10,593 nucleotides of DNA from a virus. Its lineage: Duplodnaviria > Heunggongvirae > Uroviricota > Caudoviricetes. Below are positions 1 through 3,000 of the stretch, piece by piece. Location of the stretch: the IMG/VR virus record IMGVR_UViG_2541047438_000018, positions 1 through 10,593 of that record. The stretch is one strand, 5' to 3'. Position 1 is the first letter of the stretch. Each line of letters begins with the position of its first letter. The position numbers are program-made.

Positions 1-3000
1 ACCGGAATTGAAGCAGTTTTTACGTCAAAAAGCAATAACTTTTTTCTCTATACCAAAAGCCATAACCATTGGTTTGTACAAAATAAATTCTGCCACCTTT
101 AGCCAATGCTCAATGCGTCTTTCACAGGTTCTTAAACTCCATTCCGGATGTGCATCATTCAGCAGTTCAGCCATTTTGCGCTTAGTCATCCCCCGCCCCA
201 CATAACGCTGACTCAGAACATTGAGCAGCCCGGGATAACCTGCCAGTACTTCACCAATAACCCTGTCGATTATTAACGCCTCTGAATCGGTACAATGCAC
301 CAGCCAGCTTTTTTGCTTGCCGTTGATCATATCCCGCAAAAAAGCCTCAAGTTTAGGTTTGTCCAGACCTGCTTTTTTCATCCTCCGGAGCGCCTCGTTA
401 ATTGCCGTTTTTGTCAGCTTTTTAGAGGTCAGCAACTGGTTGAACATATTTCCCGTCTTACCGCCGCCAATATACGACCAGCGCCCCCACATACGTAGTT
501 TCCCCTGAATCCAGACACTTTCCAGCGTGGTGAGACGAAGGTGCTCTCCGCTTTTTCCTGTGTTCGTTGGGTAAATCATAAATAACCGTCCTTTCTCCAG
601 ATCTCTTGTGTGCGAAAAACACCTTCTGCATGCATCAGGCGCAATTCTTCTTTGGTGTAATCGCTGGTTTTTACTCTCCCGTCGATTAAATCGTGGCATG
701 AGTTACAGGCAATCGCTGCCTGCATATCGTGTGGCTTTATCGCTGTTCCGCACGTTCCCGCCAGCCTGTAATGCGCCAGCACAGAGGTTTCGGGATTGTG
801 ATTGCAGTAGCCAGGGATTCTGATCTGGCATATCTGGCCTTTAGCCGCTTTACGTAAATTCACCATTACGCAAACTCCAGTAGTTGTGCGGCCACATTTT
901 CAACTTCCTCCTGAGAGGAGAATTTACGGAACAGAATCCAGTTCCACAGCACATTCAGTACAGATTTATAAACCTGCTGAAACTCGACTTCGTCCATATT
1001 CGCAAAAGCGATGGATTTTGCCCGACGCCCACGGCTACCGTCCGGATAAATATGCTCGGTGTAAAATCCGGCCTGAATGGTTACCCACTCGCGGAAAGCC
1101 TCAAACGACTTTAGCAACGCCGTATCCCGGGTTCTACGAGTCGCAACGGTGTTAAGGTATTGCTCTGCGGCATCACTCAGGGCTGGCGTGTGTTCCCGAC
1201 CAACTGATTCGCACAGGTAATCAACGAAACCAGACAGCAGTTCTCGTTCGCGAGGCGTGATCGCCCCACCGACCGGAGTCCAGTAATCGAATCCCAGTTG
1301 CAGGAGTTTGAAAAAACGCTTGTGGAATGCGTAGTTACGCACACGCTTAAAATCTGCGTGTATCCACTCACCTATTTTGATTTGATGCAGAAAATCGCAA
1401 CTCTCCGGCGTCGCCGGGAGAAGTAAACCAGAAGAAGTTTGTTTGACCAGTTGTATATGCGCCATTTCTCAATCTCTCGATGGCGCAGTGCAGCAGATGC
1501 CAGTTGTTCAAGCTAGCACGCAAATTGTAAACCAGAATGCCAGGAAAAAACAAAACCCGCCGAAGCTGGTTGTGTGCGGTTGCGTTGAAGTCTCCTAGCC
1601 AAAGAGTAGCGGTGACCACTCCCCGCCGATAATCTTAGTTGTTTAATTTCGTAAGCTAACTAGGCTAAAAGCTCTCTGTTGTCTGCCTGTTGTACAATTA
1701 ACAAAATGAACAACGAACTAGATATACCAACGCCAGAATGGTGCAACAAATCCCAAACAACACAGCAATGCAACAATAACATATGTTATTTTCCTCTCAC
1801 GGGATTCAGTCCTGAATTCTCATAAAGCTAATCTTTTTTTAAAAACATACTGTTAGATCACATGCACTTTCTTTCTTAACATCGTTGACTTCGCATGCGA
1901 AGCGTTTAAAATCAACAATTTGCACTTAAGGTATTTATTTTCCCAAACACATAGAGAGTAAATTATGACTGAGAACACGACTCCAACAGCAGACTTTAGT
2001 CCTAGTAAAAGATTTTTTGTAAGTATGCTAACTCGAGATATCGACTTAAACGATGCCATACTTGATCTGCTTGATAACTGCGTCGATGGGGCTTTACGTA
2101 CAATAAAAGACACAAAAAAAACTTCAAAACCATATGAAGGATTTTATGCGAAACTTACGATTAATAAAGATGTCTTTATTATAGAAGACAATTGCGGAGG
2201 TATCCCTAAAAGCTTCCGAGAATATGCTTTTAAAATGGGACGACCCCATCAAAAAGAAGAAGAAAATGAAGGCACCGTTGGCGTCTATGGTATTGGTATG
2301 AAAAGAGCCATTTTTAAAATGGGTAGAGATTGCTCAATACAATCGAATAATCCCGATGGCGCATTCACTGTAGATATAACACCTGATTGGATCGATGGTG
2401 ATGGTTGGAAAATACCGATGCACGAGAGTGACTATGATAACAAAAATCCAACAGGCACAACTATAGAGATAAAAAAACTCCATTCTAATGTGGCACAAAA
2501 ATTTAATGAGAGCACATATCTTACTGATCTCTTTTTACAGATAAAACACTCATTGTCATTTATTATTCAAAAAGGATTTAAAATAGAATTAAATGGAGTT
2601 GTTGTTGAACATAATCCGATTAACATCATAACTGATCATTCTAAAATAGAACCATACATATATAAAGCTAAAATAGACGATGTTGATATCGATTTAGTTG
2701 TTGGCTTCTATAAAAATTTAGAAGATGACAATGATGATGTTTTAGAAAAAAGGAGTTCTGATGATGCTGGATGGACTGTCATTTGCAATGACCGCGTTGT
2801 TCTATATTGTGATAAGACACATCTCACAGGTTGGGGCTTTGCTAATGTACCAAGGTTTCATACCCAATTTATAGCAATTTCTGGGGTTGTTCGCTTTACC
2901 AGTAAAAACCCAGAAAAATTACCAATAACAACAACGAAACGAGGTGTCGATCTTAGTTCTACATTGTACAATGATGTACGAAATAAAATGATTGAAGGGA

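Follow-up and report, generated by a model that had tools for sequence, protein, structure and literature searches.

A perfect palindrome in the ATPase-operon promoter of prophage CP-933R/Sp10 is probably incidental spacer sequence

The window analysed here, a stretch of viral DNA of 10,593 nucleotides, belongs to the E. coli O157:H7 prophage CP-933R/Sp10, and within it a perfect 14-bp palindrome, CTTCGCATGCGAAG, lies at positions 1889–1902 in the promoter of an operon that encodes a GHKL ATPase together with a methyltransferase-like protein of family PF20553. We show that this promoter is conserved in related lineages and that the dyad is not, and the palindrome is probably incidental spacer sequence of the conserved promoter, not a repressor site. 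The palindrome finding itself matters little, and what has been gained is an assigned promoter for this operon of CP-933R/Sp10. An earlier note had described a perfect GC-rich palindrome over the -35 element and spacer in otherwise AT-rich DNA, which our analysis confirmed: the palindrome has a G+C content of 57%, compared with 30–36% in the surrounding island, and it takes in the final two bases of TTGACT, the -35 hexamer, along with most of the 16-nt spacer that precedes TAAAAT (sequence of window 1885–1912: TTGACTTCGCATGCGAAGCGTTTAAAAT). The features of the module and its promoter are listed in Table 1; on the EDL933 chromosome (NZ_CP008957.1, numbered as window position + 2,155,942) the palindrome occupies 2,157,831–2,157,844 and the predicted start falls at 2,157,861.

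Table 1. Positions of the promoter, the palindrome, the module genes and the flanking hok/sok sequences in the window.
Feature	Positions	Strand	Basis or remark
Degenerate 3' part of hok/gef type I toxin locus	1555–1782	-	Left of module; 85% identity to Hok/Gef of L243
Promoter core of the ATPase/PF20553 operon, conserved as TCG-TTGAC-N10-AAG-N4-TAnWAT-CA	1882–1916	+	Six-lineage comparison
-35 hexamer TTGACT	1885–1890	+	Promoter scan; TTGAC invariant in 7/7 lineages compared
Palindrome CTTCGCATGCGAAG	1889–1902		E. coli lineage only; relatives share AAG (CTT too in 3)
-10 hexamer TAAAAT	1907–1912	+	Promoter scan; 16 nt past -35
Predicted transcription start	1919	+	Inferred, 7 nt past -10
GHKL ATPase (HATPase_c_3), WP_000138556.1	1965–3356	+	ECs1955/Z2386, inferred from gene order
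PF20553 (Methyltransf_35) putative O-methyltransferase, WP_000016656.1	3356–4345	+	E = 2e-89; start overlaps ATPase stop codon
C5 DNA cytosine methyltransferase, Z2389/ECs1953, M.EcoKO157ORF1953P	4313–5464	-	PDB 3G7U
sok/hok leader region	5650–5774	-	Right of module; Rfam sok RF01794, E = 2.3e-9, under gathering score

The palindrome belongs to a mobile three-gene module (GHKL ATPase, PF20553 protein and convergent C5 methyltransferase) that sits in a split hok/sok locus. The hok/gef remnant on its left holds only broken small ORFs, and positions 5717–5900 on its right match the phage 933W sokW region at 92% identity, while nucleotide homology of the module in the relative L082 starts at window position 1880, 5 nt ahead of the -35 hexamer. 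The methyltransferase gene is convergent with the operon, their 3' ends overlapping by 33 nt, and in the wider family this gene is found mostly directly upstream, in the same operon. PDB entry 3G7U is the window's methyltransferase (E = 1e-254); its annotation goes no further than a cytosine-specific methyltransferase, and REBASE gives no recognition sequence for M.EcoKO157ORF1953P (PMC10073500). Our literature search found no papers on the module's accessions, PF20553 or 3G7U, and no PADLOC model matched the ATPase or the PF20553 protein. The ATPase model combines a GHKL and a transducer fold and resembles Hsp90, SMCHD1, MORC2 and topoisomerase IV ParE, with no nuclease recognisable in this GHKL and transducer clamp. 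The premise of the earlier note that the module is toxic and restriction-like is unproven, given an ATPase model of this kind and given that transcripts of the operon were detected by microarray in an exponentially growing O157:H7 lysogen (PMC2241611).

Scanning the intergenic region for promoters returned a sole promoter-like site on the plus strand, TTGACT and TAAAAT at 16-nt spacing, which matches the consensus at 10 of 12 positions and lies 52 nt 5' of the ATPase ATG (position 1965). We compared this region among six lineages with ATPase identities of 77–100%, in which the upstream DNA is otherwise scrambled or unalignable. The core given in Table 1 was kept 71–82 nt from the ATG in these lineages with its spacer fixed at 16 nt, and invariant columns accounted for 17 of 35 positions in the core versus 3 of 45 in the flanks. 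At equal spacing the -10 of the homologues reads TAAAAT, TAGAAT or TAGTAT, a seventh lineage retains TTGACA-16-TATCAT, and in three relatives (L175, L082 and L085) the equivalent site was the only plus-strand promoter-like site or was among the top-scoring ones. Because the core survives amid scrambled upstream DNA in six lineages, the promoter is real and conserved, and the conserved -35, -10 and 16-nt spacing back the placing of the palindrome within the promoter of the ATPase operon by the earlier note.

The comparison covers only six or seven lineages, which are related by descent. Relatives with an ATPase identity of ≤75% (L114, L177–L180 and L248) were left out because their upstream regions are unrelated and could not be used, and the 173 E. 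coli copies were uninformative because all are ≥99% identical. A metagenome scan for diverged close relatives returned identical copies only, a viral pattern scan gave just two spacer types at ATPase promoters, and a scan of genome contigs found distant relatives at 42–47% identity among the matches listed. Unlike the rest of the spacer, which is free to vary, the AAG is invariant and could belong to a protein contact, a point that counts against a purely incidental palindrome.

Examination of the spacers in the related promoters showed that the palindrome is not conserved. That of the closest relative (87%) is CAATCAATCAGAAG (ATCAATCAGAAGTGCT), with no palindrome, and those of the other relatives (CATCCCTATCGAAG, CTTCACATTGCAAG, CTTCATCCTTCAAG and CTTAGCTGGTGAAG) are also non-palindromic. 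The outer three pairs, CTT...AAG, are common to three relatives and the right arm AAG is found in all five of the relatives that keep the promoter core; given these shared outer pairs, the four inner pairs are the sole lineage-specific part of the dyad. When the inner pairs were scored in the homologues, 7 of 24 proved complementary, as often as chance would give (0.25 expected), and there were no compensatory changes at the dyad pairs of homologous promoters. The earlier note had taken the palindrome for the site of a repressor or controller, a proposal that it tied to the same palindrome standing upstream of homologous operons; because the palindrome is absent from the related promoters, with inner pairs that match at the chance rate, the proposal is not sustained on its own terms. 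A palindromic operator as a family-wide trait was likewise rejected, as 130 non-redundant upstream regions of homologues showed no enrichment, with two perfect palindromes 14 bp or longer observed and 1.3 expected.

In first-order Markov simulations of the 10.6-kb window, 53% of runs contained a perfect palindrome 14 bp or longer, and its presence at the scale of the window is therefore unsurprising. Inside the 345-bp intergenic region such a palindrome arose in 3.4% of simulations. Once the shared outer pairs are given, completion of the dyad has a probability of 0.004 in this lineage and of ~0.03 in at least one of seven lineages. The palindrome is thus real and mildly improbable, yet it was chosen post hoc.

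A dimeric DNA-binding protein from the host, from CP-933R or from another O157 prophage might nonetheless bind CTTCGCATGCGAAG, occlude the -35 and spacer, and repress the operon in the E. coli lineage only. We consider this unlikely, although a perfect dyad at P ~0.004 would fit it, as would the reach of the dyad from the -35 into the spacer, which is the classic position of an operator, and the partly conserved CTT...AAG, from which a weak ancestral pair of half-sites is conceivable. Cappable-seq of EDL933 under eight conditions (PMC10469882, Suppl. 6, sheet 1) has no start site for the ATPase gene (RS11260) among the entries listed, and a promoter with 10 of 12 consensus matches whose gene yields no start under these conditions would also suit an operator; the absence of a start despite a near-consensus promoter could reflect repression or silencing. 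In the same table, start sites are absent for every prophage gene from RS11225 to RS11385, among the matches listed. On microarrays of Sakai, ECs1954 and ECs1955 fall together at the entry into stationary phase (log2 -2.61 and -3.22, respectively; PMC2241611), which points to co-regulation of the pair and to its transcription in the growing lysogen. The detection of transcripts in growing lysogens argues against a lineage-specific operator, as does the lack of the dyad in the closest relatives, which share the promoter and all three genes.

Furthermore, neither the window nor 18.9 kb of prophage sequence, immunity region included, had a second site at up to three mismatches. IMG/VR had 71 stretches with an exact copy; those at the ATPase promoter proved to be the present island, and the 61 newly retrieved copies had no common flanking context. 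An operator shared among phages was rejected on these grounds, the prophage holding no near copy and the exact copies on other viral contigs differing in their flanks, and both results also count against an operator confined to this lineage.

Our search for a regulator gave a similar picture. The module has three genes only, with no match to a helix-turn-helix family and no regulator gene among them, and the small ORFs in 1560–1964 are hok remnants or unconserved and include no controller, which agrees with the earlier note in its remark that the island has no controller gene. When the upstream neighbours of the homologues were inspected by eye there was no obvious helix-turn-helix regulator; some of these neighbours presumably resemble DinI. 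The 700 nt that precede the ATPase ATG of the window contained no LexA box (CTGT-N8-ACAG), nor one with a single mismatch, and perfect LexA boxes are found ~290 nt upstream in four other lineages. To our knowledge, CTTCGCATGCGAAG resembles no E. coli regulator consensus (LexA, PurR/LacI family, Fur, CRP/FNR or MerR type), which is a further point against a dedicated operator. MerR-type spacer operators have their dyad within an over-long spacer of 19–20 nt, and an operator of this type was rejected as the spacer here is 16 nt.

We also assessed whether the palindrome could be a structural element, in the form of a hairpin or cruciform that acts as a terminator or processing site on either strand, or of a recombination site at the module edge. 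It does lie within 10–25 nt of the point at which nucleotide homology of the module starts on the left and, judging from gene order, antisense transcription of the phage early-right operon must cross it. However, the possible stem is only 5 bp with a loop of 4 nt, the DNA fold of -3.4 kcal/mol (z = -0.18) and that of the antisense RNA (z = -1.2) are no better than shuffled sequence, and a T-run or terminator call is absent on both strands, and on this basis a terminator or hairpin was rejected. Likewise, the right edge of the module has no matching inverted copy, no terminal inverted repeat pairing the left and right edges was found, and the palindrome is not conserved in relatives, and overall a structural role appears extremely improbable.

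Another explanation is that M.EcoKO157ORF1953P, or some other methyltransferase, acts on the palindrome or on a sub-site within it (GCATGC, CATG or CGCATGCG), and that 5mC in the spacer tunes transcription of the ATPase and PF20553 genes. The dyad is G+C-rich with three cytosines per strand, the module has a C5 methyltransferase gene at a distance of 2.4 kb, and, with the methyltransferase-first operon prevailing in the wider family, the separation of the genes here would need some other coupling. Nevertheless, the methyltransferases of the other lineages show 65–78% identity to the window's enzyme from end to end, the presumed target-recognition region included, and probably share specificity because this identity extends along the whole length, but the spacers of these lineages have no common cytosine-bearing palindrome. 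Since lineages with similar methyltransferases lack an equivalent spacer site, sensitivity to methylation is not a property of the module, and we regard a methylation-tuned promoter as quite improbable. It is similarly very doubtful that the O157:H7 spacer has acquired a palindrome which the module's methyltransferase targets or a dimeric regulator binds, such that methylation or occupancy of CTTCGCATGCGAAG gates the promoter; if this were true, an epigenetic interlock would replace the ancestral methyltransferase-first operon order, with the methyltransferase gene now uncoupled and convergent.

The reading that we favour, in which the palindrome is incidental to the promoter, would work as follows. 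Positions 1882–1916 would form a housekeeping (sigma-70 type) promoter at the extreme left edge of the mobile module, where RNA polymerase would recognise TTGACT and TAAAAT, 16 nt apart, and probably start transcription near 1919. The product would be a bicistronic ATPase/PF20553 message with a predicted leader of ~46 nt and GAGAG as its putative ribosome-binding site. The outer bases of the palindrome, CTT...AAG, would be inherited and partly conserved positions of the promoter core, and the inner eight bases, CGCATGCG, would complete the dyad in this lineage alone, most probably by accident. A dedicated repressor would not be expected at the palindrome, and expression would instead be set by general factors, which may be sigma competition or growth phase, and presumably also by antisense transcripts that arise in the phage early operon and in the convergent methyltransferase gene.

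In terms of use, the context outweighs the palindrome. The C5 methyltransferase, GHKL ATPase and PF20553 protein form a widespread and uncharacterised three-gene module, of which the enterobacterial prophage version has its own conserved promoter and a methyltransferase gene turned convergent, and a defined promoter and module boundary are now on hand for work on the module in phage defence or DNA modification.

Several known control systems share elements with this promoter. C protein/C-box control governs type II restriction-modification operons (PvuII, BamHI, AhdI and Esp1396I), which the present case resembles in its palindrome overlapping the -35 of a methyltransferase-linked module and in the same logical need, effector expression being timed against methylation. 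However, the module has no C gene or small helix-turn-helix gene, and there is one dyad in place of tandem C-boxes, without a GACT...AGTC pattern and without conservation among homologues; control by a C protein was rejected as the controller gene is absent and the single 14-bp dyad has no second copy. C5 methyltransferases of the SsoII/Ecl18kI/EcoRII type repress transcription via an N-terminal DNA-binding arm, and here too a C5 methyltransferase shares its module with a palindrome-bearing promoter. The methyltransferase of the window, like most of the aligned homologues, opens with catalytic motif I (MNVIDLFSGVGG; DLFSGVGG from residue 5), and because it begins directly at this motif it has no SsoII-type arm; an autoregulating methyltransferase of this type was rejected for want of the N-terminal extension. 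Moreover, instead of diverging from the promoter, the methyltransferase gene is convergent and lies at a distance of 2.4 kb. In the CfrBI system, methylation of a CfrBI site inside the promoter tunes transcription, and the G+C-containing palindrome in the -35 and spacer beside a cytosine methyltransferase recalls this arrangement, but the homologous promoters share no site even though their methyltransferases are 65–78% identical at full length.

Restriction-modification-like operons in which GHKL (MORC/paraMORC-like) ATPases are linked to DNA cytosine methylases have been described (Iyer, Abhiman and Aravind 2008, PMC2292703). The ATPase described here is likewise coupled to a C5 methyltransferase and mobile, and it differs in having a PF20553 methyltransferase-like protein as its partner in place of a helicase or nuclease; no nuclease was recognised. 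Finally, the promoter can be set beside the ordinary sigma-70 promoters of mobile gene cassettes, from which it differs by an AAG that is invariant at approximately -19 to -17 and by the conserved TCG just 5' of the -35, and which it resembles in its near-consensus hexamers at 16-nt spacing, its conserved position ahead of the first gene of the operon, and transcripts that are higher in the growth phase.

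The window corresponds to the early-right region (replication to nin to Q) of a lambdoid prophage of Rac-like type, whose phage genes lie on the minus strand. Out of 5,426 complete E. coli genomes, 173 carry this sequence at 99% identity or better; O157:H7 EDL933 and O111 and O103 STEC strains are among them. The methyltransferase of the three-gene module is Z2389/ECs1953 of CP-933R/Sp10 (REBASE M.EcoKO157ORF1953P; PDB 3G7U match, E = 1e-254), and from gene order ECs1954 should be the PF20553 protein and ECs1955 the ATPase. Modelled with AlphaFold (pLDDT 82), the ATPase is similar to the GHKL-plus-transducer modules of Hsp90/TRAP1, SMCHD1, MORC2 and topoisomerase IV ParE, with no recognisable nuclease, and PADLOC has no model covering the ATPase or PF20553 protein, which leaves the earlier note's premise of a toxic restriction-like module unproven.

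Features of the window and of related stretches (window positions unless a stretch is named)
Feature	Position	Strand	Remarks
GHKL ATPase (HATPase_c_3)	1965-3356	+	463 aa; low-G+C island
PF20553 'putative O-methyltransferase'	3356-4345	+	329 aa; start overlaps ATPase stop
C5 DNA methyltransferase	4313-5464	-	383 aa; convergent; 3' end overlaps operon by 33 nt
-35 hexamer TTGACT	1885-1890	+	promoter scan; whole site 10/12 consensus matches
-10 hexamer TAAAAT	1907-1912	+	16-nt spacer from -35
-35 to -10 segment	1885-1912		TTGACTTCGCATGCGAAGCGTTTAAAAT
14-bp perfect palindrome	1889-1902		CTTCGCATGCGAAG
16-bp perfect palindrome	1775-1790		AATAACATATGTTATT; A+T-rich
TCG	1882-1884		directly 5' of -35
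AAG	1900-1902		in spacer, about -19 to -17
hok/gef locus, 3' part	1555-1782	-	hok ORF degenerate
sok/hok leader	5650-5900	-	Rfam sok, E = 2.3e-9
Direct repeat, left	1818-1836		TCTCATAAAGCTAATCTTT
Direct repeat, right	5572-5590		TCGCATAAATTTAATCTTT
Palindrome positions, L181			CAATCAATCAGAAG; ATPase identity 87%
Palindrome positions, L082			CATCCCTATCGAAG; 85%
Palindrome positions, L083			CTTCACATTGCAAG; 83%
Palindrome positions, L175			CTTCATCCTTCAAG; 83%
Palindrome positions, L085			CTTAGCTGGTGAAG; 77%
Palindrome positions, L176			CATACTTTTATCAA; 77%
LexA box	L082 4712-4727
LexA box	L083/L084 4710-4725
LexA box	L085 4595-4610
LexA box	L175 2779-2794
LexA box	L113 4690-4705
Second HATPase_c_3 protein	L178 4266-6089		Serratia-type variant
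Second HATPase_c_3 protein	L179 7672-9498		Serratia-type variant
Other cargo	L243 2883-5132		E. coli NRZ103545

Only one plus-strand sigma-70-like site was found in the intergenic region, with the ATPase ATG 52 nt further on. We compared the upstream DNA of six lineages with ATPase identity of at least 77%, the window's own included, and found it unalignable except for one block, TCG-TTGAC-N10-AAG-N4-TA(A/G)(A/T)AT-CA, in which the spacer is 16 nt without exception and the distance to the ATG is 71-82 nt throughout; 17 of its 35 columns are invariant, whereas the flanks have 3 invariant columns in 45. A seventh lineage has retained TTGACA-16-TATCAT, and in three homologous intergenic regions the block is the only promoter-like site or among the top-scoring ones. 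This conservation and ranking support the promoter call well, and the palindrome does lie within the promoter of the ATPase operon as the earlier note had it. In L082, a relative in another stretch, nucleotide homology to the module runs from window 1880, 5 nt before the -35, to near 5516, and by this comparison the promoter belongs to the mobile module and lies right at its boundary. The AAG and TCG triplets are also invariant in the six lineages; neither is a standard sigma-70 contact, and they may be where RNA polymerase or another factor makes contact.

The perfect, GC-rich 14-bp palindrome was likewise confirmed (G+C 57% vs 30-36% for the surrounding island), as was its overlap with the final two bases of the -35 and most of the spacer. 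A palindrome of at least 14 bp arose somewhere in the 10.6 kb in 53% of Markov simulations, and inside the 345-bp intergenic region in 3.4%; taken alone, it is only mildly unusual. The same region contains both of the window's longest perfect palindromes, the 16-bp one spanning the start codon of a degenerate hok-frame ORF where hok-locus homology fades. Among the E. coli copies compared, the sole polymorphism, at 1864, is outside the 14-bp element.

ATPase homologues form a graded series, and flanking DNA was recovered at identities of 87, 85, 83, 83, 77, 77, 75, 75, 71, 67, 66 and 65%, from various lambdoid prophages or chromosomal islands; most of these lineages carry the same three genes, and one contig stops short of the methyltransferase position. 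At the palindrome positions only AAG (5/5 relatives keeping the promoter core) and CTT (three of those five) are common. The inner four dyad pairs are complementary in 7/24 cases in the homologues, which is the chance rate, with no compensatory changes, so that the outcome named beforehand as refuting, a dyad not conserved upstream of homologues, is what we observed. Judged from the alignment, the palindrome is outside the conserved part of the promoter. With the outer pairs inherited, chance completion of the dyad has P = 0.004 for one lineage and ~0.03 for at least one of seven, values that are low but not negligible for a feature chosen after the whole window had been read.

A lineage-specific operator for a putative dimeric protein is unlikely: beyond the unconserved dyad, a search allowing up to 3 mismatches found the site nowhere else in the window, nor in 18.9 kb of the prophage that include the repressor/cro region, and no regulator gene was found inside the module, bearing out the remark that none was obvious. 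The repressor or controller operator proposed earlier is thus not supported. In IMG/VR, 71 stretches contain the exact 14-mer: at the ATPase promoter the copies belong to this same island, and the 61 newly fetched ones have no flanking context in common. Perfect palindromes of at least 14 bp are not enriched in 130 non-redundant upstream regions of homologues from many phyla (2 observed vs 1.3 expected). Candidate assignments as a LexA box (no match), a terminator (no terminator call) or a stable hairpin (folding, both strands) were rejected, and a structural element of any kind seems very improbable. GCATGC, CATG or the whole dyad could be a target of the module's methyltransferase, but the enzymes of other lineages are 65-78% identical over their full length, presumed target-recognition region included, while their promoters have no cytosine-bearing palindrome in common; a methylation-sensitive site is accordingly rather improbable, and such a switch, if it exists, would have arisen within this lineage.

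The promoter is real and ordinary, and we consider it probable that 1882-1916 is simply a sigma-70 promoter in which, in this lineage, the palindrome is incidental spacer sequence. RNA polymerase would start near 1919, and operon expression would be set by general factors such as growth phase, sigma competition, and antisense transcription that originates in the phage early operon and in the convergent methyltransferase gene. At entry of Sakai into stationary phase, ECs1954 (log2 -2.61) and ECs1955 (log2 -3.22), grouped in a cluster of growth-related genes, fall together (PMC2241611), a pattern that implies co-regulation of the operon and its transcription while the lysogen grows. A published list gives Z2389 as negatively RpoS-dependent (PMC2907692). 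EDL933 Cappable-seq in eight conditions lists no gene-associated start sites from RS11225 to RS11385 (PMC10469882, Suppl. 6), so these data neither single out the ATPase promoter nor confirm the predicted start.

A type I toxin-antitoxin locus, hok/sok, is split by the module. Its left part shares 85% identity with a Hok/Gef locus annotated in another E. coli at the matching prophage position, and its right part is 92% identical to the sokW region of phage 933W. An imperfect direct repeat (16/19) flanks the module just beyond both edges of nucleotide homology; it may be a junction repeat, or the two copies may match by chance, the DNA being A+T-rich. L243 carries other cargo at the equivalent prophage position, namely a pair of hypothetical genes and an S8 peptidase that lie between DUF1367 and the replication genes, adjoining hok; this stretch of the nin region therefore acts as a hotspot of cargo exchange.

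Among the matches listed (L002-L081, L116-L174), the module is widespread, with ~112 non-redundant loci in Cyanobacteria, Chloroflexota, Planctomycetota, Latescibacterota, Proteobacteria, Firmicutes and an archaeal MAG; the PF20553 gene is directly downstream of the ATPase in 107/112 and a Dcm-like gene nearby in 106/112. The commonest order there is dcm-ATPase-PF20553 on a single strand, with dcm ending 0-30 nt 5' of the ATPase, and the enterobacterial prophage form (convergent dcm, separate ATPase promoter) is derived. The three-gene module falls outside PADLOC's coverage. Serratia-type variants (ATPase 66-67% identical) encode a further HATPase_c_3 protein, larger at 607-608 aa, whose gene is inserted between those for PF20553 and the convergent methyltransferase. 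Four diverged lineages have perfect LexA boxes (CTGT-N8-ACAG) upstream of the ATPase ATG, at a constant distance of 287-295 nt, and none is present in the window or the 87% relative. After each box, on the plus strand, comes a short ORF (18-24 aa) with weak conservation, and in L082 and L085 then a hairpin with a T-run, seen by eye; the boxes may serve an SOS-induced small RNA or peptide, read-through into the ATPase operon, or a minus-strand gene.

Restriction-modification promoters under C-box, SsoII-type or CfrBI-type control resemble this arrangement only in having a palindrome in a promoter beside a methyltransferase. C-box control involves a controller gene and tandem boxes, neither of which was found in the module or its promoter; SsoII-type control uses an N-terminal DNA-binding arm, ruled out here because the methyltransferase starts directly with motif I; and the conservation of the site is likewise missing from the homologous promoters. 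Broadly classed, the module itself is one of the systems that link GHKL ATPases to cytosine methylases (PMC2292703).
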